64,000 nucleotides of DNA from the NCBI GenBank assembly GCA_973895155.1, contig OZ316891.1, forward strand, positions 13,609,037 through 13,673,036, written 5' to 3'. This DNA is from Marsupella aquatica (Eukaryota; Plantae; Marchantiophyta). Shown piece by piece: positions 3,315 through 26,700 of this stretch (position 1 is the stretch's first letter; the number at the start of each line of letters is the position of its first letter). The notes under the pieces were generated by a model. That model was not told the origin of the DNA. It saw only the letters and a list, made by a program, of their open reading frames with translations, and searched no databases. A program made the position numbers and the translations under genes.

Positions 3315-6300
3315 CTACTTGTGCTGCAAATGCAAAACCTGCAAAGTAGCACGGTGTCTTGAGTAACTCTCCAAAGGAATCACTTTGGTAAAAGCATCAG
3401 CCGGGTTGAGTTTTCCATCAATCTTGACTAGCTCAAACATTTTATCAGACACTGCTTGCCTAATAAAATGGTACCTGATTTCAATGTGCTTCACCCTACT
3501 ATCCATCACCTGGTTAATAGCTAGGTGAAGCGCACTCTAGCTGTCACAATGAAGAGCCATTTTTCCATGCTCCAATCCCATCTCAGTGACCAGCTTATCC
3601 AACCAAATTGTTTCCTTTGCTGCTTCTCCTGCTGCAACATATTCTGCTTCTGTAGTAGACTGACATACACACTTTTGCAAGGTAGATCTCCAACTTATGC
3701 ATCCTCCTCCAAGAGTAAACACATACCCAGTTGTTGACCTCCTTGTTTCCAGACAGCCTCCGTAGTCAGAATCTACATAGCCAACCAAAGATTTGGTTTT
3801 GTTTGATTTACTATCAAACAACAAACCATAATCTATTGTGCCCTTAAGATACCTGAGAATCCATTTCACAACCTCCCAATGTACCTTCCCTGGATTTGAC
3901 ATGAATCTACTCACTTTGCCCATTGCTAGGGCTAGATCAGGCCTGGTACATGTCATCAAATACATTAGACTGCCCACTGCCTTCTCATAAGGAACCTTAG
4001 TCATCAAGCCTCTCTCCACTGGATCCATGGGGCAGAAAGCCGATGATAACTTGAAATGTGGAGCCAAAGGAATACTTACTGGCTTACAATTTTCCATATT
4101 GAATCTTGCAAGTACCTTTTCAGCATACTTGCCTTGATTCAGCCACAATTGTCCAGTTTCAAAGTTCCTCGTAATCTCCATACCTAAGATCCTCTTGGCT
4201 TTCCCAAGATCCTTCATTCGGAATTCAGAACTCAATTTTGCTTTGAGTTTGTCAACCTCAGTTTGATCCTTAGCCGCAATCAACATGTCATCCACATAGA
4301 GCACTAGAATGAGCAAACCAAACACACCATTCTTGACTGATTTCGTATACACACAAGGGTCATACACCATCCTAGTGAATCCTTGTGCAAGCATGAAATC
4401 ATCAAACCGCTTGTTCCACTGTCGAGGAGCTTGCTTCAATCCATACAAGGACTTAAGCAACTTGCAAACTAAACTCTCTTGGCCCTTCTTCACAAAGCCC
4501 AGTGGTTGCCTCATGAAAATTTGTTCTTCCAAGGTGCCATAGAGAAAAGCAGTAACAACATCCATTTGATCTAACACCACATCAAAAAACACAACAAGTT
4601 GACACAAAATTTGTATCGTGGAATACTTGGCAACTGGAGAGAAGACCTCATTGTAATCCACTCCCTTCTCTTGAGTGAATCCCTTGGCAACAAGCCTTGC
4701 CTTGTATATCTTGTCTTCTCCATCTGAAGAGTTGTCCTTCAGTTTGTAAATCCACTTGCTATCCACCACTTGTTGATCACTTGGCAGTTGCACCAGCTCC
4801 CATGTTCTGTTGTCACTTAAAGATTGCAACTCCCTCTGCATCGCTGCATTCCATTCATCTTTCTCGTCTGAAATGCACGCCTCATGATAAGAAGAAGGTT
4901 CTCCTTCTTCCAAGATCAGTGCTCTGTCATCATCTTCAGGTGCAATGTCAACATCATCTAACCTTGATGAATCTGTCCATTGTCCATACCTTGTAGGAGC
5001 TCGAGTAGTACGTCTTGATTTTCTAGCTGATGATTCTGGTTGATCTTGTTCTATTGGTTGAATTTGAGGTATTCCAACAACAACTTGCTCCTCTTGTTCC
5101 AATACCGGAACCAGCTCCATTCTCGGAGCATCTCCTTCATTTATGTCATGAAAACTCTCATGACCAATCTCCCCCACAATATGGTCCAGGATAGGAGATT
5201 TACCTTTGTCAGTACGGGAAGTCTGAGCATTCTCCCCCTCCTTTGATGATCTGGATTCATTAAAGGATACATCTCTACTGACAAGCAACGTACAAGCTTC
5301 TGGATCCCATAGCCTGTAACCTTTCACACCTGGTTGATAACCAAGAAAAAGACACTTCTTGGAAGTAGAATCTAGTTTAGATCGATTCTGCTTAGGTGTG
5401 AGAGCATATGCATCACTTCCAAAGACTCTCAAAACCTGATAGTCTGCGTGCCGTCCATACCTCATTTCAAATGGCGTCTTGAAATTGATTGCACTTGAAG
5501 GAGAAAGATTTACCAAATAAGCTGCCGTATTTATAGCTTCAGCCCAAAATTCATGCGGTAAACCTGATTGGCTCAACATACTCCTCGATCGCTCCAATAG
5601 TGTTTGGTTTAGCTGCTCACAAACACCATTCTGTTGAGGAGTATAAACTGTCGTGAGATGACGAGTAATCCCTTGCTCTACATAATATAGTTCAAATTCA
5701 CTTGAACTGTACTCCCCGCCGTTATCTGATCGCAGATATCTCACCTTGGATCCAGTCTGATTCTCAATTTGGGCTTTCCACTTCTTAAAAGTGCCAAAAA
5801 CTTCAGACTTGGCATGTAGAAATGTGATCCACACATACCGTGAGTAATCATCAATGAACGTGACATAGTACAATTTTCCAGAAAATAAGGGAGTTGGGGC
5901 TGGACCTCACACATCACTATGTACATACTCAAGTATAGCTTTGGTATTGCGAGTTTCAACACCAAAGGTTCTCCTGTGCTACTTCCCAAGCACACAGTGT
6001 TCACAAAAATCTAGCTTAGTAGATTCCAAATTAGAAAGAAGTCCTTTCTTGCGAACTACTGTCAAACCCTTTTCACTCATGTGTCCCAATCTGCAGTGCC
6101 ATAACTGAGTCATCTCACCTTGAGATCTAGTTACACTAACTTCTTCACAAATCATGTTGCCCTCCAACAAATATAGATTCCTGTGCCGCTTACCCTTCAT
6201 GACAACCTTGCCTCCGGTTGACACTTGAAGAATACCATCAGCAGAACTCCACCGACATCCATTTGCTTCCAGCATTCCAAGAGAAATCAAGTTCTTTTTC

Positions 6301-6542
6301 ATGTCAGGTATATGTCTGACATTATTCACTATTCGCACAGCTCCATCAAACATCCGAATTTTCACGGATCCAATTCCAACAATTTGACAAGGATGATCAT
6401 TCCTCATCAACACAGAATCGGTTGATACTGAGTAAGAAGTAAAAAACTCTTTCATACAACAAATATGATAGGTACAGGCACAATCTAAAATCTATTCATC
6501 ACCATTGTTACTGGATGAAATGCAAAGGGCAACATCTGGACT
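3315..6542 (-). pseudogene. pol: Copia A pol (protease, GAG-pre-integrase, integrase, RT, RNase H) with in-frame stops
   Basis: ILDCAC protease, LWHCRLGH..CEHC, SDNGGEY, QQNG, YKARLVAKG, QMDVVTAFL, LYVDDML, STTEAEY, KHIEIRYHF. One frame interrupted by stops at ~6492, 5979, ~5906 and 3537. Confidence 0.93.
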
Positions 6543-7469
6543 TCACAAGATTTCATCATCAAGCAAGTCAATCATATCAACATCAGTGGCTGCGTTCGCT
6601 GATGGTTGATGAGTCTGCTTGATTCGACAGTCTCGTTTCATGTGGCCAAGCTTGTTACATTTCCAGCATATAATTGGTTTCCTTTCTAGAGATTTCTCTC
6701 TAGACCTGGATCTAGACTTAGATCGAGCCTTCTCCTTGCCTCTATTCCGTGAGGGGTACGTTTGTGAAAAGGACCTATTTTCACCAGTCATCCATTGTTG
6801 AGTCCTCCCGCGGTTCACATTCAATGCACTGCCAGATGAAGATGGTGTCTGGGCATGACCCAGTTTCTTCTGTGCATCATCTAACAACAAAGAGCTTACC
6901 ACCTCATTATATGAAATGGTTTTGAGATCTCTATACAAGAGAACCTGTTTCAAACCTTGATACGATGGGGGTAAGGAACTGAGAAGAAGCAATGCCTTAT
7001 CTTCATCTTCCATGCCCTTGCCAAGATTTGAAAAATCTACAGCTAGGCTGTCGAATTCATCCAAGTGATCTCGAAGCTTGCCTCCTTCTTTTAGCCTCAA
7101 GCTCATCAAGAGAGACTTCTTGTACAACCGATCTGAGGCATCCTCTCGGTAGTACTTCTCTCTGAGGGCCTTGAATAAGGATACGCAATCCTCGTAGTCG
7201 TCCAACTTCTTAATGATATGCGGCTTCAGATATAGCATAACCGCATTCACAACAATCACTTGCTCTTGCATCCATTTCCTCAACGAGATCTCCTCCTCAT
7301 TGCTAGACTCCTCCCGAGTCGATAGTAGATGATCTAGGCCCATAGCACAAAGAATTCCCTTAACCTGCTTCTCCCATAGCAAATAATCTGTGCGCCCATC
7401 ATATTTTTCCACCTCAAACTTGACACCTCCAAACTTGGATGCCATCGTTGTCCTCCGAACGTTCTCCAC
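6543..7469 (-). CDS. gag: Copia A Gag
   Basis: KFEVEKYDGRTDYLLW, LLLSSLPPSY (UBN2-type gag), CCHC knuckle CWKCNKLGHMKRDC. Confidence 0.92.
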   Translation of the reverse strand: MENVRRTTMASKFGGVKFEVEKYDGRTDYLLWEKQVKGILCAMGLDHLLSTREESSNEEEISLRKWMQEQVIVVNAVMLYLKPHIIKKLDDYEDCVSLFKALREKYYREDASDRLYKKSLLMSLRLKEGGKLRDHLDEFDSLAVDFSNLGKGMEDEDKALLLLSSLPPSYQGLKQVLLYRDLKTISYNEVVSSLLLDDAQKKLGHAQTPSSSGSALNVNRGRTQQWMTGENRSFSQTYPSRNRGKEKARSKSRSRSREKSLERKPIICWKCNKLGHMKRDCRIKQTHQPSANAATDVDMIDLLDDEIL

Positions 7470-7809
7470 GTGCTATTGCTGTGATGCTCCCTATATGCTT
7501 TTTCCTTCCTTCTCGTTGATTCAAATCCAAATCACGAAAAAATATTGTTTTTCGCAACTTTCCAAAAAACTTGAAACTTGTCACCGCCACTTAGCCCACC
7601 AACCTAGCAAGCCAACGCTGAAATCCAAAATTGAAATCGAGTTCCGACGAAAAACTTTTTCACATTTCGGTCGGGGTGGGTAAAACTCAAAAATTCTTCC
7701 CCGTTTTGACCACCTTGGGGAATAAGAAAAATTCCAAGTACCACCCGTCGTCGGAAATATCAGCCTATTCAATAAAAGTGTATTTTCTTTTGTTCACAAA
7801 TCAGTCTTG

Positions 7810-7878
7810 AAATGTACACTTTCATGTCCCCAAATGTACACTTTTTGGTCTCCAAATGTACACTTTATAGGCCAAATC
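7810..7878. repeat. Left subterminal repeats (C)CAAATGTACACTTT, 3 copies
   Basis: Seen directly, ~21-23 bp spacing. Confidence 0.85.
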
Positions 7879-8199
7879 ATATAAGTATTATATTAATAAA
7901 TAATACATATTATATCATTTATGATTCACAAAGAATAATAGGATAGAGATCATTATTTATGAATTCACAAAGAATAGTAGGATAGAGATCATACTTATAA
8001 AAACATTTCAGCACAAATACTCCCTTGAATATGTGTGAACAAAATGACATAACTCCAAATAGATTATAAAATAATATACAATTATCTCCAAATTTATAAT
8101 GTATTTCTTCTATCTAAGGGGCTTAACATGAGTCATATCTCTAAACAAAATGCTCCTTACAATGTGTATTTGAGCACGTGCCCCTGTCTCCTTTACTAT

Positions 8200-9176
8200 C
8201 TACCTAGTGTCACGGTTGCAAGTCCCTTTATCTTCAGGGAGCTGAAACTTGGTGGTGTTGTTCCTAATGGCTATAATCTCCCGCAAAAAGTGTCTGGGAT
8301 TTTCTCTATGTGGACCTGAATAGTCCCTTCCTACAAATGCTTTAGCAAGTGACGTGACAAGTGCATCGTCAAGTTCTGCCTCAGGACGTAAACTACATAT
8401 ACGATGCTTCACGTTCCAAGGAATCTCATTGCTGTTGAGATCCAACACACTATGCGTAAACTGTGACTTCCAAATTTTTGTTGCACATCTCTTACTAAGT
8501 TGATCATAAGTAATTTCATTTTTTACCTTGTCTCTCTTTATGTGCAATAGAGACCACAGTGGAGAGTTAAGAAGAAGATAACATCTAATGTCACTTGCAT
8601 GGGATAGTTTCTCAAGACAAGGCCAAAGAATTGTTAGAAGAAAATTATCTCCACCATTGGCATGCGTGTAGGGCACTGGAAATAGTCCGGTCATGCTTGG
8701 GTTGGCAAATGCCTTAAGGGGGGAGTCATCCACAAGGAGGGTGTTGGTTTCATCATATAGATTTCCAAATCCACTCCATACCACCCGAAAATCCTTCAGT
8801 AGCACATTTGTCTTTCCGTTTGTAATGTCACGCCTTTGAATGCCTGTGTCAAAGGCTTCCACTTGTGTGAATACAAACTTAAGTTTCAACTGCTCCTCAA
8901 CAGTGAACATCATGTTCAGCATTTTCACTGTTCGATGTACCCCAGCACATGTCCAAATTGCAACGTCAAATCGGTCAAAAACCAACTTTAGAAACTCATG
9001 GAGCCCTGGCCTTTCTGTGTACATGCGACTAATTCCATTTTTTCTATCCCAATGCACTCCACTTGGGATCACAACATTTCTGGATTTGCCCTTGCTTTGG
9101 AATTCAACTGAATCCCAAAGTATTTTGTTAAGATCCAAAATCAGCAATTTGCGCTTGATGGAACAAGGTCTTGGTT
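8200..9176 (-). CDS. FCP1/NIF (HAD-family, CTD-phosphatase-like) domain exon inside the DNA transposon
   Basis: RKLLILDLNKIL, RPGLHEFL, VAIWTCA, LLKDF, NTLLVDDSPLKA. Motif I is DLNKI, not the canonical DxDxT. No convincing ATG; strong acceptor TTGCAG| at 9178/9177. Confidence 0.82.
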
Positions 9177-11873
9177 CTGCAAGTGCAACAAATACCAATC
9201 TTAGAGATAAAACCACATTTGAAGTTTGGATAGAGATCATCTCTGTCAATCCAACACAAGTGGCCAACCACAAAGAAAATATATTTGCATACTGATCAGA
9301 TTCATTGAGAAACCGTAAAGAGGAGATGGATATTGATACTGATGCTCTAATTGTTAAACTTGAAGTATAATTATACAGACTATATTATATCAAATTGATA
9401 AGGTCACATCGCTCAATCTAGACCTTGGCTAACAATGCGATCCATATTCATCAATCAAGATATCATCACCGAGTTCTTGTTGGATCTCATAATTGACATC
9501 GGAGGTACTCTCCTCTACCCAATAAGGTGCAGACCAAACCGGAGTTATCAATCCCAATTCTCCACTTCTATAAGTTGGATCTTTCTTGTGCTTTTTGTAC
9601 GAGTCATTGTTCAAAATTGATTGAGCAGCATCCAACGCAACTTCAGTTCCTACATCGGGTCCACTTTTCCACACGTAACATTGACAATCATATTCAAGTG
9701 ACTTATATCCAGTTGATCCTACTCTCTTCCCTTTCTTTTTTGAGAGTGGAAGGATAACGGGACTTCTTGATTGTGATCGAACAAACACCAATTTGTCATC
9801 AGAAGCGGAAAAGAGTGTATTGGGACAAATTGAAGCACCTGCCTGGTTGTCAGCAGTCGTGGATGCACTTGCTTCATTCACGGGAATGTCAGCTATTTGG
9901 ATGGGCTGTGGTCTCAATCCCAATGTGTCGAGTTCATTGGACTCACCATGCCTCTCCGCACCTTGATTGAGAAGGTTGTTTGAAGAAAGTTTTTCAAAAG
10001 TATCAACTTCCATCTCTTGTCCAGACACTTGTGGATGGAGACCATCTCTATCCAAGTTATCATCATATTGGCCCTCGTTGGGGCCCATGGGGGCAGCATC
10101 TGTAATTGGTGAACTACAAGGTGCAGATCCAACAATCATATCGTCGTCCACAAGGTCAATATTTTCACCCTCGCCAACTCGGTCATCCAAATTCTTCACG
10201 TATGCCTCTGATGGCCCATCGTCTTTGACTGATTGGTCAGCTCCATCTTCTTGATCACCATCTGATTCATCCTCAATAGCAACAGCGGCAGAAGAGGGTT
10301 CCCAATGTCTAGAACTTCCACCGACATAGCGATCATAACGATCTTTGATGGTGGGAACCTTCTCACAAAGGAACGAAGCGTATGCTTCCACAAAATGTCT
10401 CTCATGTTGAGAGTCACAATAAACAAAACATTCACGTTGAGAAAAAAGGGATGCCTTCATCACTTGACCACCAGAGAAAAAGTCAAGAATCAAATCCCCC
10501 GGCTCGGACAGTGTTTGGATGATCTTTTGGATCATCCGTGTGGGTTTGGCGTGAGGATTCACCCACCCACCCCGAGCGCCGACAGTCTCAAATCGAGGTG
10601 CCATGTGCAGAAGGATTGCCGCCTCTTCTGGGGTCATCATATTTTTTAGATCTTCATGCAATGACTCCTCCTCCGCGTCCTTGGCCTTTCCCTTTCCCTT
10701 GACCTTCTCAACCACGAAATCAGTATCCTTTTCACCGTACACCCATTTTGGCTTCATTTGGTTGGGCTTGAACACTTCATCCCAACTGACGTTCTCCTCG
10801 CGAGAAATTCCGGCAAAGATAACCTCTTCTATTCCTCCCTTCCAACATGAGTCCTGAGGGTGAGGTTGATCATCTCGGTAATAACTCCCATACTCAATGT
10901 GAATACTCAGAGTTTTTGAATGTCCTAATTTACGAAGAGCGCTTAGGACATTCAGTACAAGATAACCCGGATGGACAGTTATCATCACAACAATGGTAGG
11001 ATTCCGTGGTAGCTCTACTATATATTGGAAGAGGACCAAAATCTCAACTTCAGTCCACTCTTTTTGCTGAAGTCGGCTGAAATCAACAATTGCAAGAGGG
11101 CATGTTGGAGATTGTTCTTCCAACGACTCCGGATCCACAGTCTTCATTAGGTTGTTACTAAAAAATGTGACCCACGGCTGGGTCCGAGAACTTGTCCCAC
11201 CGCCAAACTTTTGATAGTAAATATCATCTAGACGCATCACCAATGTCATTGGCAATATCTCACTCTCCTTTGTATGATTCGACTTCAACAAATTTGTCAA
11301 CCATACATCGCCAGCTGCTCTTCGGCACCTGTTCAACTCCGAATCGGGACCCAATAATGGGAGGACTTCAATCACTTTAGCCCAATCAGTATCTGCTGGG
11401 AAGTGTTTTGGATCCTTCTTGAAGTAGTAATCTCCAATAAGAGACTTCAATTTGATCAATATCTTCACCTCCTTTGCAAACTCCTCCATCGCTGGAACAT
11501 CTGACTTATTAGTCGGATCTTTCTTCAATAAAATCTGACCCAACTTCACCTTGTTCAAAATTCTGGTCAAATCTCTATTTGAGATTTCACCATCAAAACA
11601 ACGAAACATGGCGACGGTTATCGCCTTTTCGGACCTTTTGTTTCCCTATGTACCAGCCCCATCAGGAAGTTTTCCATCAATCCACATCTGGCACACTAAC
11701 CGCCATAACTCGAAAAGATCATTCTCGGCAAAAAGTAACCAGTATACATTTTTCAAGTCTTTTCTCCCCATGGTCATCCTTGCCAATGCCAGATAATCCT
11801 ACAGTCAAAAATTAGGGAGAATGTTGTAAGTTATCTACAATCAATGAGATTTGACAACACACAATCGCTTGCT

Positions 11874-12066
11874 TGGACAGAGACCATCTCCGTCCAAGCC
11901 ATAACCAAAAGTAGAATGAAGTAAAATCTACAGAATGGAAGATCTCACTCTTGGACAGAGACCATCTCCGTCCAAGCCATAACCAAAAGTAGAATGAAGT
12001 AAAATCTACAGAATAGAAGGTCTCACTCTTGGATAGAGACCATCTCCATCCAAGTCATAACCAAAA
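11874..12066. repeat. ~78-bp tandem repeat (2.5 copies) in intron 2, each carrying a palindrome variant
   Basis: TTGGACAGAGACCATCTCCGTCCAA-GCCATAACCAAAAGTAGAATGAAG... repeated. Confidence 0.9.
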
Positions 12067-13815
12067 ACATATTGAACTAAAATCAATGTAACGGACGGTC
12101 ACACTCTTGGACAAAGACAAGAAAAATGTTTCTCACCTGAAATTTTTGACTCTCTTGGGCGTTTGATTTGTTGTCCCCGTGCTTTGGCTTTCTTGGTCTT
12201 CCAGTTTCAAGGAATTGTTTTCTTGCATGAACAATTGTATCTTTGAAGCACGATTGAAACACCATCGAAGAATTGATGGCATTTGATCTCATTGAGTGCT
12301 CAACCAGTATAGCCGATGGCGTAAGGTCTGACAATAATCTAGCCTTCCTATATTTTAACTTTTTTGCCAAAACTGTGAGCTTGGCATCAGTTTCGGCCCA
12401 CTCAAGAACCCATTTGGCCGCCCTAGCAGAATGTTGCCCACTGACGGCAAGGAAAACAATCTCGCCTTTCTTCACTCCTGCAAGAAGGTCTTTGCGGTCG
12501 TTCTCCGTGCTGTCAAAATGAAGCAACTTTCTAAGTTTTGGATTGTAAGGAAGAAGGTCCGCAACGTGAGGTTCATGTCCAGGGTTTTTCACCATGGATT
12601 CGGCTATGTGCTTCACATGGGCACTGTTGAGCATCTTGTAACATAACCTTGCCGGAGCTGGATAAATTTTCTCCACTGGAATAGAAAATATTTCATTTAT
12701 CCCAAAAGTATAGTACTGCTCTATTCTTTGGAGAACATCATTCCCTTCTAAGACCTTCTTCTCCTCCGGGGCATCAAGTTTGTCTCCCTCATCCTCTGGG
12801 AGCATCTGTACGTCCGTCGGAGTTGACCGCGCAATAGTCTTGTCAGTTTTATGTTTCTTCTTTACTGGCTTCTTCTCGGGTTCCTTCGGCTGTGTCTCAA
12901 TTTTCTTGCGCTCCTTCTTCTCTCTTTGTCTTCGCTTCCCTACCACTTGTTTGGAGGCTGTCCCGGCCGTTGTTCCTACAGTCCCGGTTGTTGTCTCCTG
13001 AGATATTTTTCTAGGCTTCAGAACTTCTTTGTTAACAACTACTGGAGGCTTGTTCACCACTACTGGTGCAACATTTGTAGGCTTGTTCACCACTATTGGT
13101 GCAACACTTGTAGGCTTGGGTAATGATTCTACCCACTTTTTTGCATTATCCATTGCAAAATCCTCTGCAAATATAATTTTCTTGTCAAGGAAAACACCTG
13201 ATTCCGATGATAGGAATCCTGCCTTGTCAAGCAAATTATTTAAAATCCATGTCACCGGAAATGTATAATTCCCTTGGTGTTTATGCATATTAAGCTTCAC
13301 ATATTGAAACCCATACATGATGTCAAGTGGAAGAATCCCCTTCACTCCAAGAGTCACCTTTTGAGTTGAATATGACTTAGGGAAAAAGCCCATTGCCAAC
13401 ACGCCAAGTTCTCCAGCTGCAGACCACTCAACATTGAATTCTGAAGAATATGCCTTTGATAGTAGATGTAGTTTAACCCATCGTATCCTTTCATGGAGCT
13501 CAAGAATGACGAAAACAAACCCTCTTCCTTCAATTCCAATGAAGACTACAGATCCGAGTACAAGAGTCTCCTGATCTGCAGTTCTGACCTTTATGCACAA
13601 AATGGGATCCCGTCTCGTTGACGTGCTAAGGAAATCAAAATCAACTCTGGAGAACTCAAGGCCCCAACGAAAATCTTCTCTGCTCTGCTCCAACAAGACT
13701 CCCTCGGAGCAATCTGCGTCTGAAATCTGTGGTTTCAATGCATTTAGATAGCTCCCTGCAGTAGTCCCATCCAGGCATATTAGTTTGGAAATCTTACTTT
13801 TGTAATTGTCAAAAA

Positions 13816-14153
13816 TTGGACACGGATCATCTCTATCCTCTATTTGGACAGTGATGATCTCTGTCCAATTTGTAATAAAGATCAGCTCTGTTCGATGAGA
13901 GGATACTGACGATCGTTATTATCATCTCTATCCTCTACTTGGACAGGGATCATCTCTATCCAATTCCTAATAAAGGTCCTCAGCATCGTCTGATAGGACA
14001 TCCTCTATCGTCAGTTTGGAAATAAATGATATCTATGCAATTGGACAGGGATGATCTCCATCCATTTGGATAGAGATCATCTCTGTCCAATTCCTAATAA
14101 AGATGACTATCTTCTATTTGGACTCTACTTGGACAGGGATCATCTCTGTCCAC
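13816..14153. repeat. Array 1 of the 25-bp palindrome TTGGAYAGRGATSATCYCTRTCCAA (intron 1 of the accessory gene)
   Basis: Copies at 13816, 13844, 13939, 14041, 14066 and 14129, plus degenerate ones. Confidence 0.9.
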
Positions 14154-14504
14154 CACACAAATATTCAACTTGTTACTGGGATACTCACTTGGATTGAGCG
14201 ATTGAAAGGCTCTGGAATCCTCGAGGGCCGTCTCCACCACGTCCTCAATGGATGAGAGGTCTGTCTCCTCTGTTGGCTCACTGACGAGACACACTGGAAT
14301 AGGTCTGGATGGCTCCATCGTGTGACACGTGGCCTTATGGACACGTGGAGGATTGCAGAGCGTTAGATCTAGGGCAATTAACGTGGTGGCTATGGGGATA
14401 AACTTTAGTGCGGAGGCAAAGCGAAGGAGTGCAAAGGCGTCGGAGTGAAGGAGATTGGAAGATAATGAGGCGGAGGAGCAAGCAAAGGAGCGCAAGAGCA
14501 GGAG

Positions 14505-14625
14505 TGGAGAAGAGGAGGAGCGGACGGAGGAGGGAGGAGAGCGAGCGAGGAGGAGAGCGAGCGAGGAGGAGAGCGAGCGAGGAGGAGAGCGAGCGAGGAG
14601 GAGAGCGAGCGAGGAGCGAGGAGGG
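14505..14625. repeat. Purine-rich 16-bp repeat (GAGGAGGAGAGCGAGC)n between the divergent transposon genes
   Basis: About 5-6 tandem copies seen directly. Confidence 0.85.
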
Positions 14626-15289
14626 AATGAAGAATGAGGCCCAAGTGGGACCTCCTGCCTCCTTTACCCCCCCTCGAGGCGAGGCAAGGCACACTGAACA
14701 CGTGGGAGGCCGAGGCGAGTGGAAAACCCTACATGCACGGCTGCCCTAAAGTGCGCCGCCCGACCTAATCCACTCGCCGTTGCTTAAGGCTGATCACGCA
14801 TCGCCTTATCCATAAGGGCGATCTTCAACAACTGGTATAAGATACTTGGGGTTGTCCGGCTGGTCCTCATTTGGTATTTTCATTTCTAGATTTTTGTTCT
14901 GTTCCTCAACCAGGTCCGTTCATTACGGAGCCCCATTGAGACACTCTTGTTTTCCAGACAGAACATCTAGTTTTAATTTCTTCCACACCCCTGAAGCATT
15001 TAGTTTACCAGGTTACTGATAACTACCCCTTCAACACAGTATTTTAATCCTTGGTTTGACAACATAAACTAAATTGAGTTTTGGGTTCAAGAATCATTTC
15101 CATTACAGGTAACTTTAAACCTAATTATAGAATTGTAGCATATTCCATTGATATCCGCAAATTTAGGAATTACTATATCTAAGTTAAGGTTGAAGTGAAA
15201 AAATCCCAGCCCAACTCACGATTGGGATAATCTCAATCCAACCGTTCTTTGCTCAAACATTAAATTCGTGTGTAGAGTCAATTGTCCGT

Positions 15290-15896
15290 ACAGGGGTCAT
15301 CCCTGTTTGCTATTTGGATAGGGATCATCTCTATCTGCTGTTTGGATAGGGATGATCCCTGTCCACCGTAGAGTACTGTAGAGGACCATATGAACTATAG
15401 CACTTTATTGGATCCTCTACAGTTTGGATCCTCTGGTTGGATAATGATCCGTATTCGCCGTTTGGATCCTCTGGTTGGATAATGATCCGTATTCACTGTT
15501 TGGATGGGGATGATCCCTGTCCGCCATTTGGATAGGGATGATCCCTGTCCACCGTTTGGATAGGGATGGTCCCTGTCCGCCGTTTTGATAGGGATGATCC
15601 CTGTCTACCCTTTCAATAGGGATCCGTGTCCGCGGTCGTTCTCCGGATGATCCCTGTCCGCCGTTTGAGGTATTTGCTTGATTGGACCCCAATATGAAAA
15701 GTTTCCTTGAATCATCCCTGTCAGTTGTTTGGACAGGGAATAGACCCGATCCACCATTTGGACAGGGATCAGGCGTGTCCGCCTTTTGGACAGTGACAGA
15801 CACTATCCGCTGATTAGGCAGGGATGATCCTTGTTTGCCGTTTGGACACTGACAGACACCCTATCCGTCGTTTGGACAGGGATCATCCCTATCCGA
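15290..15896. repeat. Array 2 of the 25-bp palindrome, ~28-bp period, upstream of the transposase CDS
   Basis: Copies at ~15314, 15342, 15500, 15528, 15556, 15584, 15612, 15729, 15758, 15786, 15814, 15842 and 15872; lies before a splice acceptor TGTGCAG at 16068-16069. Confidence 0.9.
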
Positions 15897-16086
15897 CGTC
15901 TAAATTGGGATCAGGGATCTTAGGGCTAGATAGGGACTTTTTGGGGACCTATTATTTTGCTTGATGGGGATAATCCCGATATGCGCACTGTCCTTGGAGA
16001 GGGTTGACACCTATGTGCTTCCTAGTTGGGACCATTCTTAACTAATACTTTACATTTAAAATTGTGCAGGTGAATACGTTATAGGA

Positions 16087-19000
16087 ATGACCGGAATATT
16101 TTTGAGAGGAGACAATGTGATATTGACAAATGATGGTAACGATGTTGCGAGCGGGACAGTTCAAAAAGTCAACCCGCAAGATAGTGTTCAAAAGATATTG
16201 TTGAGAGAGAATCGAATGGGAGTTCTCATTGAGAAAGTTTTTGACCGAACCACAAAACTACTATTTCCGATGCCTCGGGCAGAAAACCTTTTTGATGCCA
16301 TTGATTCTTGCGTTATTTGGGATTTGTCTTGCGCATATCTATCCACGACAACAAATTCTCAAAAACGCATTAGTGTAGGTAGTTGTTCAAATAGACCCGA
16401 GAGTAATTTGGAGAAAAATCCAATTGTAGAGGAGGACTCATCGACCACTCCGAGGCAAGGGGATGAGGTTGAAATGTTCATCTTTGGGTGTTGTGTAGCC
16501 CTTGGAGTTGTTTTCAATACAAATCCAATGGAAAGATGTCACAACATTTTACTTGGTGAATCACGGATCAGTGTGAGGGTCACTGATGTCATTCATGGGA
16601 GTAGGGTTTTACCTTACAAACACAGTGGGGCTGAAACAATTGACGAGGCAAAAGACTCATGGGTTCTCTGGGACGTGGCAGATGTCCGAAGTAGAAAGAG
16701 TTTCTCAAAGAAGGATGCGGATGATGATATCAATATAGAGCGGAGTTTTGTTGTGGAGTCTCCCTCAGTTGAAATTTCTAAAACTAATTGTGACTATTTC
16801 CAACGGTCAAATTGGATGTCAGAGTTGGTCGAACTATACATCGGTTCAGATCGAACCAATAGGGTTGCCACGGGGACCATCACTGTGCCTCAAGAAACGG
16901 CGGCGGTTGACGATGAAATGCTTGGTGAGGACCATGTAGGGATTGCTGTGAAAGATGTGGTGGAATCACAATACTTTCCCAACTTCCATAGGGGAGTAAT
17001 TACTTTGGTTCGGTGGCGAATTGATTCAACAAAACTACTTGCAAATGGGAAATTTTTGTCGGACATTTTGGTTGAAGGTTCAGAGAGGATGGAGTTGGTG
17101 GATAGGGATGATCTCTATCCAAATGTAAATGATAGGGGAATGCTGCGCACAAGGCCATACAATTTCAACAAGAGGACTCATGTAGATCCGATTGAAAAGA
17201 AAAGAAGGCTATTGGAAACCAAGGCAGTTTCAAAAACAACGAAAGCTTCGATTGATGAAATTAAAAGAGAGAATTGTTGCAAGCAGAAATGTTGTCTGAC
17301 TATGCCAAGAGAAGACATAGAAGATATTCAGATAGAATTTCACGGGATGTCTAGTGAGTCAAAAACATCACACATTTTCAACCTCTTCCACTACAGAGAA
17401 GATGATGTTCGTGATAAGGGGCACCATGTTCTCAAGGGTATGGTCGTATGTAGACATGCATTTGCAATCATCCATGGCTTTAGCCACATAAAATATTATG
17501 ACTACAAAAGGAGATATGTGGAGGGCTGCAAAATTGGGTTCCATGGAAACACGGGCTCCATGAAAACAAGGTCAAATACCTTGCATGCACGAGCTCTGTT
17601 GGAGGATTTTTTGACTCGAAATGCAGAGCCCATGCCTCATATACCTTATGCTGGGGCTCATGGGACAGACTCCACTGAATATCGTCTTCCAGCATGTTAC
17701 AAGAAGCTGGAGATTTTGGAAGATGTGAGAACAAAGATGAAGGAAGAGGGGCTTCCTCCAGTTACAGAGAATACTCTGTACAAGATTTGGAGCAAATCAT
17801 TCGCAAACTTCAGTTTCCATAAAGATGGTGCATTTGCCAAGTGTACTCTTTGTTGTGAATACAAAGATAGTTTGATGCGAGAAAGAAGGAAAAAAGAACG
17901 TGCTGAAATTGAAGAAAAATGAGCGCAACATCTTTGTGAGAAAATGTCACGTAGATATGTTTACTATGCTCATCGAGTGATGGCTAAGCAACATCCAGGG
18001 GAATATCTTTGCATCATTCATGACAAGATGGATCAAGCAAAGACGTGGATTCCAAAAATGGTTAGTACTCCTAAATCGCTTTCGGGTCATGGGATGCCGC
18101 TACCTATTGCTCTGACAGGGATGTTGACCCACGGAAGGGATCTAGGAGTCATGCACACTTTAGTGTCACTGGCCTTTGGCCAGGAGATGCCGATTTCACG
18201 GTGACATCCTTGGCTAAGTGTCTTCGAGACCTTGAAGAGTACAATGGAGACAAGACAGGTGACATGTTGGATGGCCTTTATTTGGAACCTCATAGACCTT
18301 TCTTTCAAGCCCTTCTTGACTTTGATGCATTTTTTAAGGGATATTTGGAACCAAAGAGTATTCCAATGAATAGGTATATTGGTTCTGAAGATGCAGCCGA
18401 GAGTCAGACGGAGACGGTCTCCACCCAACTTGGTGAGGATCAAGGAGGGGACATGCATGGGGAACAAGGCAGTCCATCTTTCAAGCCCTTGCCAAGGCAC
18501 CTAACATTGCAAATGGATAACTCAGCAAAGGATAACAAAAACCAGACTGTCATGGCATTTTGTAGTGAGCTTGTGAGTAGAGGAGTATTTGAAACTGTTC
18601 AAATGTCTTTTCTTATGGTTGGTCATATGCACGAAGATGTTGATGCACTCTTTTCGAAGGTATCATATCAAGTTCAGCACAAGGAAGTTGCAACTCTCCT
18701 TGCTCTTATGGCAGAGGTTTGGGAATGTGAGAGCATTCATCCAGTTCCCAGATTGATACAAGAAGTTGCATCTTACAAAGAATATCTTCAAACTTTCAAC
18801 GTTAAAGATATTCAAGGTCACTCAAAACCTGTATCATTTCTTTTCTCTATGAGAGATAATGTACCAATATTTCAGTATAAGTCCCATGTAAAGCAAGCTT
18901 GGGCTCTAGTTGGTGGAAGGTGCATTAGGGCAACAGATCTGACAACAAATTCCCTTCTTTTACCTAGTGGAGAGCCCTTAGCTAAATCCATTGGAGAGAT

Positions 19001-19829
19001 ACACAAAAAATCTGAAGAGATTATCCCATTTCTTACCAAGTACCTTGATTTTTTGAGAAGAAGTTGCACTGATGAGACATCTATAGCATATAAGGAAAGA
19101 TTTCCTCTTGTGAAATATTGGGAGAGAATTGTGGAGTTGTTGACAAATGGGCTTGCACTGGAAGGGGAGGGAAGTACTCAATTTCCCTTGAAAAATGGAT
19201 TTTGGCCTAAGACTAACCATGGCACTGATTACAAGGTCAACCAACCGGATCAAAGTGGTCCTCCAAGTGAAGATGAGGAGAATGCGGAGATGACAGCTCT
19301 TCAAAATGAGGTCTTGGAAGAGATGGAAGATCAAGCGGCACCATTTGTTGGATCTCGAGCTGAGAGAGAACAAGGACGGTGGATTCCCCTACAGGATATT
19401 TGTCAAGGGAACTTTGTATTTCTTCGACCAGAGGATGATTGGGAGAATAAAAATGGTGGAGGTCATTTCTGGTTGGTGAGAGCTTTGGGTTTGGTTGACC
19501 CTAAGCATGAAGTCCCAACTACATCTCCAACAAACCCTCCTCTGCCTCAACAATATGCTCCAATGTTTCCAGTCGAATGGTGGAGGCCTAAACACTCTAA
19601 ACTTGATGTGACTGAGAGTGCACGGTATCTAAACTGCTTCATGTCCACTAAGACATGGGAGCGAGATCCAGGGTTTGGTGAGAACGCTCAACATTGGCAG
19701 TATGCAAATTCTGCAATGTATGGTTTTAAATCTGGCATGAAAGAAGAAAACATGGCGGGCAGAGGTTTGAAGATTCCTCGAAATGTTCTACAAACTATCC
19801 AAAGTTATCTCCAAAGGATGGACAAGTAG
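16087..19829 (+). pseudogene. Sola1-like DDD transposase with three N-terminal Tnp1/En/Spm-like repeats; disrupted by one stop and one frameshift
   Basis: ORFs 16087-17922, 17944-18204 and 18201-19829 join through TGA at 17920-22 and a frameshift near 18145-18150. Motifs: CCKQKC, VCRHAF, FAKCTLC..H, IIHDKMDQAK, LQMDNSAKDNKN, FLMVGHMHEDVDALFS. Confidence 0.85.
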
Positions 19830-20074
19830 ACTTAGTTGTTACTTGTGAAGCTATAATAATTATTAAATAGATAGTTACTTAGATAGTAACAAGTACCTAC
19901 TAGTTATTTACTATTTTAATAGTTTTAATGTGAGACCATGCCATTGAGTGTTAGTTATACTATCTCCTCATTTTCTAAACTTTTGATTGTTATGAATATG
20001 AATGTTTGCTTTTTTTGCATAATTAAAAATATTTTTCTATTCATTCTTTTCTTTTAAATGATTATAATAAGAGT

Positions 20075-20400
20075 TGGTACACTTTTTAGGCCAAATGTAC
20101 ACTTTGTTGCACTCAAAGCTACACTTTCTAGACCAAATGCACTTAAATGTACACTTTTTAAGCCAAATGTATGTTTTTTTCACTCAAATGTACACTTTCT
20201 AGGCCAAATGTACTCAAATATACACTTTTAAAGCCAAATGTACCTATTTTGATGTTCAAATATACACTTTTCATTGCCCAAATGTACACTCTTTAGGCCA
20301 ATTGTACACTTTTCTATCCCCAAATGTACACTTTTCATTGGCCAAATGTACACTTTTTCAAGCCCAAAAGTACACTTTTCATTGCCCAAATGTACATAAA
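20075..20400. repeat. Right subterminal repeat array CCAAATGTACACTTT, ~13 copies, ~22-bp period
   Basis: Seen directly, running up to the right TIR. Confidence 0.9.
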
Positions 20401-23368
20401 TCAAATAATAATACACTTTTAATGAATAGGCTGATAAATTCAAATCGAGTGATGCACCGCGTTGCTAGCTTCAGTGGCTACGTTCTCGCCAAAAAAAATC
20501 CAAAAAAAGTTACCGTTCAGACCTTGGAATCTTTGACTAAAGGCCGAAAAACAGCTCTCTGTTTTTTTGGAATATTCCTTGGACTGTGCAACAGGTCTTA
20601 CAGGGGGCCGTTCCCCCTGTCCAAGCGGTTAATTTGGTGGGTCACCGGGCCCGGGATGCCGCTTAACCAATGAGGAGCCTGGAAAGGATTAAAAAACCGG
20701 GCCTAAGGGGGTTTAAGCCCCTTAACACAAAAATACTGTCTTAAAAAAGGCGCCTATACGCATGACGGGCCAGGCAGTGCACAGGGGGCCGGGGAGTAAA
20801 AAACCGAGTCGAAATGGGCAGGGATGGAGCTGCGACAGCCGGGAGTTCTGGGATGTCCACGACGGCCGCGACGATCGGGACGTCTGGGACGTCCGTGCCG
20901 ACTGCGACGTCCGAGACGGCCGGGACGGCCGGGACGTCCATGATGGGAGTATTAGCGAGGAGGAGGAGGGGATCGCCGATGGGGTATTGACAGGGGTGCA
21001 AGGGTCGGGAGGGTGTGTATACACACCACAAAAAAGGCCCTATTCTAAGTTAAAATATGCACAAAAAATAAATTTGTTGGGTTACTCACACTGCCATTAT
21101 CACTTTACACCAGATAAAGACTAGTTGTCGACGGGAAATGTTACCAAATTGCACCGGCACCGTTTGCAACTCTAGCAGAGTAAAAAATTCCCGTCACGAC
21201 TCCTTCACTTCGCGTCAAGTGTCAATCTTGGACTCAAAACGACCACTGCACCGCGATCTCTCCGTTGAGCCGTTGCACTTCCCGTTTCTTCCTTTGAGTC
21301 AAACGCAACGACAAGTAACCCCACTTCAGTCAAAAGAAGACTCCATAGCCAGTCAAAAACTCAGAACGGCTCTTTTGCTTGGTACATCGCACTCACTACA
21401 CCCTCGATAGCAAACCAGCTACCAAAATAATCAGCTTTGCCCGATCTACGATTTGAGCTAAAGGTTGTGACGCCTCGCGCACCACAAAACTCACACCGTC
21501 GAGAAAATGATCTCAGTTCCCCCCCAAAAGAACCGTCGAACAAAACCGTCGAACACGAATCACAAAAAATCCAGAACGACGGAAACGTGAATTCCTCCGC
21601 ACCACGAACTCCGTTCAGAGATTTCTTTGCACCGTCAAAAAGCCCTTGCCCCGATCTATCCGTTGAGCCCAACACGTCCAAGTTCCATGCAACAGAACTC
21701 CGTCTCGGGGGTTTCACTTCCACAAAAATGGCATATCACGTGCGACGAAGGATAGGGTCATTTTATTGGTTCTAAAGGAAGACTTAAGAATTTTTGTAGA
21801 AGAATAATAGTGTATTTTAAATTCAATTTTGAGACTTATAAGAACATTAGGGTCTTTTTAATCCAATTTTTAGAATATTCCAAGAATATTCCAACTATAT
21901 AGGGGTTAGAAAATAATATTTTTTTTCTTACATTTTAGGGGGTCCGAGGCCTAAAAACGTCGCAGGCGATGGGGAGGTCCCCATATAGTGAGACCCCCAA
22001 GAACTCCGTGAAATCCACCAACTCTAACTATTGTATGCTATCAAAAGCAAATATCATCGAATATATTCTAAAAACTCGGTGTTCGTTCCCGTGGAAGAAC
22101 AAGAATGGGATGAAAAGATGTTTTAAAGTGTTTTGAGTGGTTTAAAGATGATACTCAACATCTATAAGAAAAATAGAATCTTAAACAAAACACAAAGAAT
22201 TAATAAAATAAGAACAAAGTGACATTTGTTGTACAACAGAATCTTAGAGCTTTTAGAGGTATAGTTTAGCAATATTTAACTCCGTCACCATGTCTTAAGA
22301 AAGAGCTATGGCATTATTTGAGACGTTGATAAGTCAAACATAACCTTGCTATAACTGCTCTCTAGGTTTCTATCATAAATCTATGTTTAAGAAGTGTCTA
22401 TGCTCACAAAACCCAAGATAAGTTTCGGATTGTGTATATAGTAGTGTGTCATTAAAATGCCGGCAACATGTTTCCTTCTTCAGCGATGCGCAATTCCAAA
22501 GGAAAACTAATGCACATTCAGTATACCACAATGGTACTTCAAATCCGTGAATTAAGAATGTCGCTACTTCTTAATCATATAGATTTCTATTTCTTGATTT
22601 CATGCAATACTTATCTTCCAAAGATAAGTCCTTCATGTAAATACAGAAATGGACAACAAATGTTGTAGTTTGGATTAGGCACCGACCAACGGATCTTCTA
22701 ATACATTCCACAAACTGTATTTTTATGGGTTTTACTTCTTACGGTAATTGCAACATGCATTACCATACGAAGGAGGGGTAGACTCCTAGCACAAGTAATC
22801 AAATTCCAAGGTATGCAAATCTTCCTTGCAAAATTGCATTACACGTACAAGGGACAAAACTCCAAGATGAGGAGATGCAAATAACTATCCACACTGTCTC
22901 AAAATGAGACTGGTATCACAATAAGTACATGAGATCGCCCATAGGCTAAGGAGAATGAAGAGACATGCCTCTTCATTTCCTAAGTCTAAACTAAGTAAAG
23001 TAAAAGTCAACTTTGACTAAGGGATAGTCAAATGGTCAAAGCTAAGTAAAAGTCTACAAAATAAAATACTAATCTCATACTGTAATAGGAGGAGGGTCGA
23101 CTACAAGTATGTTGAGCATAGACGACGATCGCAACGGCAAGCCCATGAACCATCCAACGCACAATAGTCGACACAAGAGATACGTGGTTCACCTCCTTGA
23201 GGCTACGTCCACGGGAACACACAAGAGAGCTTTACTGAACTCTAAGCCCGTCGGTTATACCGAGTCTCCACATGTAAGCTCTCCCTATCTCTCAAGTGGC
23301 TCCATAACAATGAGCCTTGGTTCTACCTCTCCAAGCACACATGCCTCTTATGATATAGTGTGCAACTT

Positions 23369-23550
23369 AGTTGTACCTAACCACATAGTTGTACCTAATC
23401 ACGTAGTTGTACCTAACCACATAGTTGTACCTAATCACGTAGTTGTACCTAATCACGTAGTTGTACCTAACCACATAGTTGTACCTAATCACGTAGTTGT
23501 ATCTAACCACGTAGTTGTACCAACCCACGTTGTTGTACCAACCACGTCAT
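23369..23550. repeat. 18-bp tandem repeat GTTGTACCTAAYCACRTA (~10 copies) in the Copia B LTR; second copy at ~29495-29676
   Basis: Seen directly; it produces the spurious VVPNH ORFs. Confidence 0.92.
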
Positions 23551-23773
23551 ACCTAACCTAGACGTAAGAGTAAATACCCAACAATCTTCCCCTTGACTCT
23601 GGTCTAGGGGAGAGTAATACTGCCAATGTATATGATCCCTCAGCGGGAAGTTCTGGACAGAACCAAACCGGTTTCCCTCTCTAACTAGAGCAAACCAGAA
23701 CTAAGCCGTAGCCTAATACATAGGAATGAGGAAGAGCATATATCAGTAATTACAATGAATGTTTAAGAAAACT

Positions 23774-26700
23774 CTACTTGTGATGCAATTGCAAAACCTG
23801 CAATACGTCACGGTGTCTAGAGAAACTCTCCAAAGGAATCACTTTGGTAAATGCGTCAGCCGGGTTGAGTTTACCATCAATCTTGACTAGCTCAAACAAA
23901 TTATCAGACACAGCCTGCCTGATAAAATGGTACCTGACGTCAATGTGCTTCACTCTGCTGTCCATCACCTGGTTCACAGCAAGGTGGAGCGCACTTTGAC
24001 TATCACAATGGAGCTTCACATTCCCCTGTGGCAATCCCATTTCAGTGATAAGTCTATCCAACCAAATCGCTTCCTTTGTTGCTTCCGCAGCTGCAACATA
24101 CTCCGCTTCTGTAGTAGACTGAGCAATACACTTCTGCAAAGTAGACCTCCAACTTATGCATCCACCGCCAAGTGTGAACACGTATCCTGTTGTTGATCTC
24201 CTTCGGTCCAAATCTTGTCCATAGTCAGAATCTACATAGCCAATCAATGATCTAGCATTCTTTGCATTCGCATCAAATAAAAGACCATGATCCACGGTAC
24301 CCTTCAAGTACCTGATAATCCACTTCACTGCTTCCCAGTGTACCTTCCCTGGATTCAACATGTACCTGCTCACCTTGCCCATAGCCATGGCAAGATCAGG
24401 TCTAGTGCAAGTCATCAAATACATGAGACTCCCCACTGCCTTGTCATATGGAACCTTTGACATCAACCCCTTCTCTGTGTCATCCGTAGGACAGAACGCT
24501 GATGATAACTTGAAGTGTGGAGCCAACGGGGTACTTACTGGCTTGCTATTCTCCATGTTGAACCTTGCAATTACCTTCCTCGCATAACTGCTCTGCGTCA
24601 ACCATAGCTTGCCAGCCTCCAAGTCCCTAGTGATCTTCATACCCAAAATCCTCTTAGCTGGCCCTAAGTCCTTCATCTTAAACTCTGCACTAAGCAGTGC
24701 CTTGAGCTTAACAATCTCAGACCTATCCTTGGCTGCAATTAGCATGTCATCCACATAAAGTACTAAAACAATGAACCCAAAGACAACATTCTTCACCGGT
24801 TTCAAATACACACAAGGGTCAAATACACTTTTGTGAAAACCTTGTGACCGAATCCAATCGTCAAACCGCTTGTTCCACTGTCTTGGTGACTGCTTCAACC
24901 CATACAAGGATTTCAGCAATCTGCAAACCAATTCCTTCTGTCCTCTCTTCACAAAACCTAGCGGTTGTCTCATGAAGATCACCTCTTCCAATGTGCCATA
25001 GAGGAAAGCTGTGACAACATCCATCTGATCTAGGAGCAGACCAAACATTACAACAAGTACACACAATAGTCGTATTGTAGAGTACTTAGCAACTGGTGAG
25101 AAGACCTCATTGTAATCCACACCTTTCTCTTGTGTGAATCCCTTTGCTACCAATCTAGCCTTGTAGACCTTCGATCCACCTCCTATGGAATTATCCTTCA
25201 GCTTGTAAATCCACTTGCTGTCCACCACTTGCTGACCCTTAGGCAGCTTAACAAGCTCCCAAGTTTTGTTGTCCTTTAGTGACTGCATCTCCGTTTGCAT
25301 TGCTGCAGTCCACTTCTGCTTCTCCTTTGAAGCACTTGCCTCATGAAATGAAGAAGGTTCTCCTTCTTCCAAAATTAACGCATCACCCTCATCATCAGCT
25401 GTAAAATCATCCTCTTGCAGTTGAGATGAATCAACCCACTGTCCATACCTTGATGGAGCGCGTACAGTGCGACCAGATGTTCTTCTAGCCGATGACTCCG
25501 GTTGATCTGCGTGTGCTGGTACAATTTGAAGCTCAACAGCATCCACTTGCTGCTCACCAGCATCAACAAACTCCTCTGGTTCCTCTGGCACAGGAACCAG
25601 CTCCATAATTGGAGCAACTCCTTCTCTCCGGTCATGCACCTCATAACCAATCTCCCCCTCAACGAGATCCGGGATAGGAGATTTTCCTTTGTCAGTACGG
25701 GAGACCTGAGTATTCTCCCCCTCCTTCAATAATCTGGATTCATTGAAGGAAACATCCCTACTGACAACGAGCTTACAGGCAATAGGATCCCATAGCCTAT
25801 AGGCTTTCACACCACTCTGGTACCCAAGAAAAATACATTTTCTGGAGGTAGGATCCAACTTGGTCCTATTCTGCTTTGGTGTGAGAGCATATGCATCACT
25901 TCCAAAAATTACCAAGCCATGATAGTCTGCTTGCCGCTTATAGCGCATCTCAAACGGCGTTTTGAAATTGATAGCACTAGAAGGAGAAAGATTTACCAAA
26001 TAAGCTGCGGTATTGACAGCTTCTGCCCAAAATTCTTGTGGTAAACCTGATTGGCTCAACATACTCCGTGACCGCTCCAACAATGTCCGATTGAGCCTCT
26101 CAGCGACACCATTCTGCTGCGGAGTATAAACTGTGGTGAGATGGCGAGTTATCCCCTGTTCTGAACAGTACTCTTCAAATTCCATTGAAGTGTACTCCCC
26201 GCCGTTGTCTGACCTCAGACTCTTCACCCTTGTATCCAAACACTTGATCGTGTTTCCAGTCTGATTCTCCACCTGGGCCTTCCACTTCTTAAAAATGGAC
26301 AAGACATCAGACTTATGCGTCATGAAATAAATCCACACAAATCTTGAGTAATCATCAATAAATGATACATAGTACAACTTTCCAGAGTGTGAGGGAGTCG
26401 GGGATGGACCCCACACGTCACTATGTATGTACTCAAGAACCGCTTTGGAACGATGAGTTCCAACACCAAAAGCACGACGATGTTGCTTTCCAAGAATGCA
26501 ATGCTCACAAAACTCTAATTTACAAGATTGCAAATCAGAAATGAGTCCATTCTTCCGTAAGATAGCCAAACCCTTCTCACTCATGTGGCCTAGCCGTGAA
26601 TGCCACAGTTGAGTCATCTCCTCGTGAGACTTGGTTACATTGGCCTCTCCACATACAGTATTGCCCTGTAACACATACAAATTCTTTTGTCTACTCCCCT

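Follow-up and report, generated by a model that had tools for sequence, protein, structure and literature searches.

A Sola-type transposon with two large genes and two motif systems

The 64,000-nucleotide stretch of contig OZ316891.1 from the liverwort Marsupella aquatica analysed here (the window) contains a decayed copy of a Sola-type transposon that spans positions 7759 to 20435 (12,677 bp). It carries two large divergent genes, one for a DDD transposase and one for an accessory protein (the cargo) with a region that resembles ParB or DUF3723 followed by a methyltransferase-like domain, alongside two distinct motif systems, namely, 14 subterminal repeats at the ends and 19 copies of a 25-bp palindrome inside. 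The features of the element, in coordinates of the window, are as follows.

7755 to 7758, no strand: left target-site duplication (TSD), AAAT (sequence and empty-site joints)
7759 to 7792, plus: left terminal inverted repeat (TIR; repeat comparison)
7810 to 7866, plus: three subterminal AAATGTACACTTT-type repeats with a 22-bp period
8200 to 9176, minus: FCP1/NIF-like exon of a haloacid dehalogenase (HAD) phosphatase, predicted acceptor at 9177 to 9178 (PF03031, E = 2.1e-15)
9177 to 9305, minus: predicted short first exon (9305 to 9293) and 116-nt intron of the NIF frame, with a palindrome at 9226 to 9250 (prediction only)
9429 to 11798, minus: cargo exon 3, with a helical region, the beta-class methyltransferase-like domain (about 11186 to 10338), an acidic low-complexity linker and a conserved C-terminal domain ending in EYGS; palindrome at 10031
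10467 to 10484, minus: variant of the S-adenosylmethionine (SAM)-binding motif I, DFFSGG, conserved in the family
11073 to 11084, minus: DFSR at the motif IV position, where (D/N/S)PP(Y/F/W) is usual
11646 to 11648, minus: premature stop (codon 634) that other copies lack
11799 to 12136, minus: cargo intron 2, with three palindromes at a 78-bp period (homologues read through the junction)
12137 to 13755, minus: cargo exon 2, with an N-terminal domain, a basic linker and the ParB/DUF3723-like domain (about 12718 to 12325), SGQHS at 12442 to 12428
13756 to 14188, minus: predicted cargo intron 1, with six palindromes
14189 to 14318, minus: cargo exon 1 with a predicted start codon (prediction only)
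14319 to 15109, no strand: region between the divergent genes, with purine-rich 16-bp repeats at 14500 to 14620
15110 to 16069, plus: predicted transposase leader intron, with seven strong and several decayed palindromes at a 28-bp period
16087 to 19829, plus: Sola-type DDD transposase, broken (DUF7869 match, acidic motifs), with a palindrome at 17098 and a weak one at 18404
20093 to 20378, plus: 11 subterminal AAATGTACACTTT-type repeats, oriented as in the left set
20402 to 20435, minus: right TIR (repeat comparison)
20436 to 20439, no strand: right TSD, AAAT (sequence)

The boundaries proposed in an earlier, sequence-only reading of this DNA—a 12.7-kb TIR element flanked by AAAT—hold. The TIRs match at 25 of their 26 outermost bases, with arms of about 34 to 35 nt that are 89% identical, and contigs in three of four sequencing runs join position 7758 (or 7755) to 20442; since these joints carry two (or five) replacement letters, they correspond to loss of the element plus one TSD. 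The flanks are likewise contiguous within a second Copia copy (28088 to 28453). TIRs and a 4-bp TSD of the form AWWT on each side are in keeping with a Sola transposon; AWWT duplications are described as a hallmark of Sola1 (PMC3845634) and are given for Sola2 as well (PMC3627910). The insertion site is the 5' leader of a first Copia element (2798 to 7758 and 20440 to 20600), which is 75% identical across 3.5 kb to the second Copia (23110 to 29710). The latter is young, since its 475-bp terminal repeats are 99.8% identical and its gag and pol frames are open.

Words of this stretch occur in six sequencing runs (three organisms, four studies), the best matching of which may be the source sample. 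Across the whole element, each of four runs yields between 2,045 and 13,830 contig pieces, many of them diverged; the pieces cover all 30 bins, transposase and cargo alike, and among them no single contig spans both genes. Joints from 7866 to 20185, with eight other letters between, bridge the two end regions in two runs (X3 and X4) and are short, internally deleted derivatives, resembling miniature inverted-repeat transposable elements, that hold only the TIRs and subterminal arrays.

Both divergent genes named in the earlier reading are present. The transposase frame matches DUF7869 (E = 4.5e-39) and has aspartate-containing acidic motifs at 18019, 18510 and 18621, a combination that we take to denote a Sola-type transposase; it is disrupted by a stop (17920 to 17922) and by one frameshift near 18150, where other copies in all four runs have one extra base. 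The cargo gene consists of three predicted exons on the minus strand (14318 to 14189, 13755 to 12137 and 11798 to 9429; 1,372 codons). Homologous models read through the exon 2-3 junction, and in the distant relative L001 an intron occupies the identical position; the exon 1-2 junction is a prediction. The stop at codon 634 is private, with nearly all depth at 11648 reading the sense base in four of four runs. It arose at a CHG site, a CG-site origin is likely for the transposase stop, and among 17 selected transitions found solely or almost solely in this copy, eight lie in a CG or CHG context, all of which is consistent with decay of this copy under host methylation. The region between the genes is likely a bidirectional promoter with the leaders of both.

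The cargo belongs to a conserved family and probably ends before the FCP1-like exon

The cargo family comprises 87 clusters at 50% identity. Species-named homologues among 30 representatives come from Calypogeia fissa (3) and Riccia sorocarpa (8), and none of the named matches is an Ectocarpus-named protein. A metagenome scan with the family alignment gave one locus of 1.8 kb out of 174 pattern matches, and neither the 44 candidates from viral contigs nor the 109 from prokaryotic genomes included a relative. In a 33-row tree (six phage enzymes plus 27 family rows, each with at least 170 of the 286 core positions covered), a fully supported branch separates the family from the phage enzymes, a weak outgroup test. 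Two proteins from Logan contigs, P0069 and P0084, are long-branch members loosely grouped with the Riccia rows and may represent another plant lineage. Fusion of the ParB-like region to the methyltransferase-like domain occurs also in models P0063, P0098, P0100 and P0101, and most members end in the same small C-terminal domain (window 9429 to 9800; Y.W..GP..G ... LQ..LG...DEYGS), which has no Pfam match. Judged from these sequence comparisons, the cargo is under long-term constraint and conserved across liverwort classes. The top-listed variants in cargo exons 2 and 3 amount to 32 changes (13 silent, 18 replacement and one stop); these classes mix private decay with subfamily divergence and were not used as a selection test.

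This C-terminus bears on the FCP1-like exon, which had been read as the fifth exon of the cargo. Its domain assignment survives, with PF03031 above the cut-off, while the fifth-exon model is the less likely one: the cargo needs only three exons and ends at EYGS. We rejected a five-exon fusion as the default because the cargo frame and 12 homologues end at an EYGS-type motif (P0001 to P0005, P0009, P0011, P0019, P0042, P0044, P0098 and P0101). Since a conserved C-terminus closes the three-exon frame, the FCP1-like exon more probably gives rise to a product of its own or an alternative one, and a separate NIF start followed by the short palindrome-bearing intron fits the reading phase. A weak in-phase donor at 9469 would also permit an alternative cargo-NIF fusion, and the linkage of the two seems old, since one Riccia model fuses both and a second one terminates with the first part of a NIF domain. 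FCP1/SCP phosphatases use the catalytic motif DxDx(T/V); the sequence is DLNKIL here and DVEGL in the Riccia model P0087, neither of which has the phosphatase motif.

The methyltransferase-like domain keeps its fold and has lost motif IV

The methyltransferase fold claimed for the cargo is well supported. A model built from a 94-row alignment is confident (predicted local distance difference test [pLDDT] of 87.4), Foldseek matches it to CcrM (6pbd) with E = 7e-8, and structural comparison with CcrM gives a Z of 17.8 and a root mean square deviation of 3.5 over 215 residues, against Z values of at most 5.3 for unrelated folds. The domain has the permuted, Rossmann-like beta-class order IV-target recognition domain (TRD)-I (hhalign probability 97%). 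Motif I (DxFxGxG) appears as DFFSGG, with each position kept in 40 to 44 of 46 covering rows, and is one residue shorter than in RsrI; VNP..KP is conserved in the family (48 covering rows). Motif IV, in a register set by model topology, the structural range (154 to 436 on CcrM 3 to 258) and a local hhalign run, reads D-F-[STGA]-R. Among the 40 of 94 aligned rows that cover the site (the other 54 do not extend over it), the aspartate is present in 37 and PPY in none, whereas all six phage enzyme controls keep D-[PI]-P-Y. In solved enzymes, the flipped base is described as held by the proline carbonyl and the aromatic residue of motif IV, and beta-class enzymes act as dimers (PMC10406627).

A domain that has kept the fold and lost this loop could still be an active, noncanonical N4-cytosine or N6-adenine methyltransferase that marks its own palindromes, as has been proposed for the Sola1-1_Ec32 transposon (PMC12477816). 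Such an enzyme would account for the complete beta-class fold, for the conservation of the motif IV aspartate, VNP..KP and DFFSGG, and for the invariant GA dinucleotides in the palindrome half-site, and liverwort sperm are described as using a bacterial-type N4-methylcytosine (4mC) enzyme (bioRxiv 10.1101/2021.02.12.428880). That enzyme, Marchantia DN4MT1, retains TSPPY, so both it and the phage controls keep the motif IV that the cargo family lacks, and a dead methyltransferase domain carried by a transposon has a precedent in DIRS1 (PMC4738411). The short motif I argues in the same direction. We therefore regard active marking as quite unlikely, and the suggestion that the element labels its copies by methylation as doubtful; on the structural model, the domain is more likely a pseudo-enzyme, altered chemistry being the less likely option. 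Loss of the catalytic motif throughout the family makes a protein that binds and shields DNA a better expectation than one that deposits a mark.

A plausible but unproven ParB label

ParB proteins spread along DNA in a CTP-driven manner, and the arginine of their GxxR motif has a role in binding CTP (cytidine triphosphate). The sequence pattern of the cargo region resembles ParB by eye. Where GxxR stands in eight of eight ParB controls, SGQHS stands in 11 of 11 covering rows, with serine at the arginine position, in a register that was set by eye and presupposes a ParB fold. If this register is right, CTP-driven spreading is unlikely, and the earlier idea of ParB-type spreading is thus in doubt. 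A language-model atlas gave DUF3723 (PF12520) as the top look-alike of the region (0.95, 175 of 256 features); with DUF3723 left out, ParB_N ranked third (0.88), which is a lead only. DndB matched weakly in one of 12 rows (E = 0.031). Searches of Pfam, NCBIfam, PHROGs, PDB sequences, plasmids and phages with this region gave nothing informative, and neither profile nor fold comparison confirmed the ParB label, which stays plausible on sequence pattern and unproven.

A sharply defined palindrome, mostly within predicted introns of both genes

The 25-bp palindrome occurs 19 times with at most three mismatches, every time within the element; the remaining 51 kb of the window contain no copy at this threshold, and 100 shuffles gave none. 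The count of more than 20 in the earlier reading is thus too high at three mismatches and correct under looser definitions: 22 copies, again all in the element, have at most five mismatches, and a weight matrix trained on the 19 finds 28 sites above the best score outside the element. The exact palindrome was not found in viral contigs. As had been claimed, the copies concentrate in introns: cargo intron 1 holds six, intron 2 three and the predicted transposase leader intron seven, which puts 16 of 19 in introns predicted for the cargo and transposase genes; one precedes the NIF exon, giving 17 of 19 in predicted introns or noncoding DNA, and two are in coding exons. A lone half-palindrome (12107 to 12119) lies next to the intron 2 donor, where diverged copies have a full palindrome almost against the donor and vary in unit number.

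Each palindrome consists of two halves three bases apart with the core GA-Y-A-G-R-GA. Across the 38 half-sites, positions 4, 5, 10 and 11 are invariant and positions 1 to 3, 7 and 12 vary. At positions 6/20 the two arms change independently of each other (T-G 7, T-A 4, C-G 4 and C-A 4; Fisher P = 0.66), and positions 9/17 lean toward co-variation (P = 0.054). Most copies sit in tandem units of 25 to 28, 78 or 95 bp, with single copies in two exons. Between two 78-bp units, the one usable pair, the motif differs at 2 of 25 bases and the spacer at 14 of 53 (P = 0.075), and diverged-copy contigs end in the palindrome or change unit number while their spacers differ.

Given this pattern, we take the palindrome to behave like a protein-binding site, as far as sequence can tell. 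The copies might otherwise have arisen neutrally, through tandem amplification prone to hairpins, or might serve as RNA hairpins, with the cargo an unrelated passenger: most copies are in tandem units, hairpin energy favors the transcribed strand in 13 of 19, and the Y/R variation at 6/20 fits CHG deamination. What such an origin does not lead one to expect is an invariant core amid spacers that turn over, arms without co-variation at 6/20, single copies inside two reading frames, or a cargo conserved across liverwort classes, and we consider it most improbable.

Which protein reads which motif

The second motif system, the AAATGTACACTTT-type subterminal repeats (3 on the left and 11 on the right), likely provides the transposase sites. 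If so, the transposase would read these 22-bp-period repeats and mobilize the element, and the palindromes would be left to the accessory protein. The reading we prefer, and hold tentatively, is that this is a multicopy Sola-type cut-and-paste transposon whose accessory protein likely binds its own palindromes as a dimer and likely keeps the element's genes expressible, as VANC and TnpA do for Arabidopsis VANDAL elements and Spm, without writing a methyl mark. The accessory protein would recognize the internal palindromes that each gene carries in its first or leader intron, the pseudo-enzyme fold of that protein may supply dimerization and contact to DNA or SAM, and occupancy of the palindromes would shield the shared promoter region from host silencing by 5-methylcytosine. 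Within the window, the arrays follow the VANC pattern: element-specific motifs, built in tandem, in introns and intergenic DNA.

Several observations weigh against this proposal. The structural model of the ParB-like region is of low confidence (pLDDT 41.9), its best Z is 3.0, and a fold search came back empty, an outcome that argues against no particular fold; a profile comparison with eight ParB domains gave E = 0.09 in the wrong register (eight shuffles, 0.19 to 0.71), which is not significant. For the methyltransferase-like domain, one of two hhalign runs, the global one, puts DPPY on the next strand, where this copy has no such motif either, and the strongly kept motif I and motif IV aspartate (37 of 40) fit a live noncanonical enzyme. 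The invariance count of the half-sites is not independent, because the copies are partly tandem duplicates and were picked by pattern. There is no clear footprint of de-silencing, since CpG depletion near the arrays (observed/expected 0.66) and between the gene starts (0.79) is only slightly less than in the Copia neighbors (0.34 to 0.60; cargo exon 3, 0.65); CpG and CWG ratios by compartment do not discriminate, and the C-to-T decay of this copy reaches near the arrays. L001 has no copy of this palindrome in 1.8 kb that include the equivalent intron, which would fit either motif turnover or no link, and the Calypogeia fissa and Riccia sorocarpa homologues are not necessarily carried by transposons. 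Finally, neither fold nor profile comparison identified a DNA-reading domain in the cargo.

This last point leaves room for the transposase or a host transcription factor as the palindrome-binding protein, with some other task for the cargo, such as a part in transposition, in packaging the element or in control of RNA polymerase II together with the FCP1-like product. The transposase begins with three related tandem repeats of about 75 amino acids each (16102 to 17061), rich in beta structure, whose pair scores were reached by 0, 2 and 1 of 2,000 shuffles; one of them weakly matches Transposase_23 (TNP1/En/Spm; E = 0.11), and they are possibly a DNA- or chromatin-reading module, unusual in such a transposase. 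Transposases alone can also be sequence-specific activators (bioRxiv 10.64898/2026.08.24.746577). The separate subterminal motif, however, already gives the transposase its expected sites, and TnpA is described as acting at termini (bioRxiv 10.64898/2026.08.24.746577), whereas arrays placed internally, in introns, are characteristic of VANC (PMC5735166). A palindrome absent from the rest of the window is, moreover, unlike a common host site. Binding by the transposase or a host factor is in our view unlikely.

Even if the cargo does bind the palindromes, the least secure part of the reading we prefer is that it activates and does not repress. DndB and KorB are repressors, and a cargo acting through operator arrays in the leader introns could be an auto-repressor or copy-number brake, like the ParB-fold repressors of plasmids and dnd operons. 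A protein bound at the sites, which closely follow each predicted start, can block transcription, and the weak DndB match would fit. Plant transposons, on the other hand, face host silencing, the two known plant accessory regulators activate (PMC5735166; bioRxiv 10.64898/2026.08.24.746577), and the tandem growth of the sites parallels VANC, so that auto-repression strikes us as very unlikely. Anti-silencing by palindrome binding can also be cast in a broader, somewhat unlikely form: the cargo might be an ancient liverwort anti-silencing factor assembled from two dead prokaryotic enzymes—a ParB/DUF3723-like one without the CTP arginine and a methyltransferase that lost the catalytic loop and kept SAM binding—with a palindrome that co-evolves in each family. 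It would then be a third independent plant origin of such factors after VANC and TnpA, with a tie to the DUF3723 of Starships.

Elsewhere in the window, a 529-amino-acid open frame (29924 to 31513, minus) with a plant-mobile-domain-like N-terminus and a proline-rich tail lies within another repeat, and an exon at 55510 to 56019 (minus) belongs to a host gene that, from its RHGES motif, is presumably histidine-phosphatase/phosphoglycerate-mutase-like.

Comparison with known systems

The cargo shares its fold, motif order IV-TRD-I, KP motif and SAM loop with beta-class enzymes such as CcrM (6pbd), M.RsrI, M.PvuII, rotifer N4CMT and Marchantia DN4MT1; unlike them, it lacks PPY, is fused to the ParB-like and helical domains, has introns and is encoded by a transposon. 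DUF3723 is described as a conserved cargo gene of the fungal Starship giant transposons, of unknown function (PMC9156397), and in being a conserved accessory gene of giant mobile elements it resembles the liverwort cargo. Starships, however, are moved by a tyrosine recombinase, and the DUF3723 homology of the cargo is a lead only, hmmscan giving no Pfam match. The dictyostelid Sola2-Fanzor elements (PMC3627910) likewise have short TIRs, 4-bp AT-rich TSDs including AAAT, and a passenger derived from prokaryotes, but that passenger is Fanzor, and palindrome arrays do not figure in the available part of their description.

The VANDAL elements of Arabidopsis with VANC (PMC5735166) and Spm with TnpA (bioRxiv 10.64898/2026.08.24.746577) pair an accessory gene with short motifs amassed in tandem in their own introns and intergenic DNA, as is reported for the VANC21 targets (PMC5735166). 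They are Mutator-like or CACTA elements with motifs of 8 to 9 bp, compared to a 25-bp palindrome here, and the accessible accounts describe no ParB-like or methyltransferase fold. Binding and demethylation have been demonstrated for VANC and TnpA, whereas for the liverwort cargo they are putative. Were our reading true, plants would gain a further class of sequence-specific epigenetic regulator, and the cargo might offer a clue to the role of DUF3723 in Starships.

The closest likeness is Sola1-1_Ec32 of the brown alga Ectocarpus (PMC12477816), a 21.5-kb element with an opposite-strand gene for a 1,104-amino-acid protein that combines a ParB-like domain with an N4/N6 methyltransferase and for which self-modification was hypothesized. 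The report cites similar proteins from green and red algal transposons, so the earlier statement that no such cargo is described in Sola-type elements falls, the same idea being in print. Both are giant Sola elements with a 4-bp TSD and an accessory gene opposite the transposase, about 1,100 to 1,400 amino acids long, with a ParB-like domain followed by a methyltransferase domain, an order that the liverwort gene reproduces. They differ in size (21.5 compared to 12.7 kb), termini (AACCG compared to ATCAG) and TIRs (282 compared to about 34 bp), and the portion of the report available to us mentions no binding-site arrays, loss of catalytic motifs or FCP1-like gene; the two are likened by description, not by sequence. 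We found no published description of a land-plant version, of the lost motif IV or of the palindrome arrays, in a search with poor coverage of subscription journals. The algal accessory idea, as far as its account is accessible, came without a named target site; what is new here is a land-plant family, likely catalytically dead according to its sequences and structural model, for which a clear-cut palindrome offers a candidate binding site. With that candidate site, intact family copies and a lineage close to Marchantia, a tractable model, the accessory-protein idea becomes directly testable.

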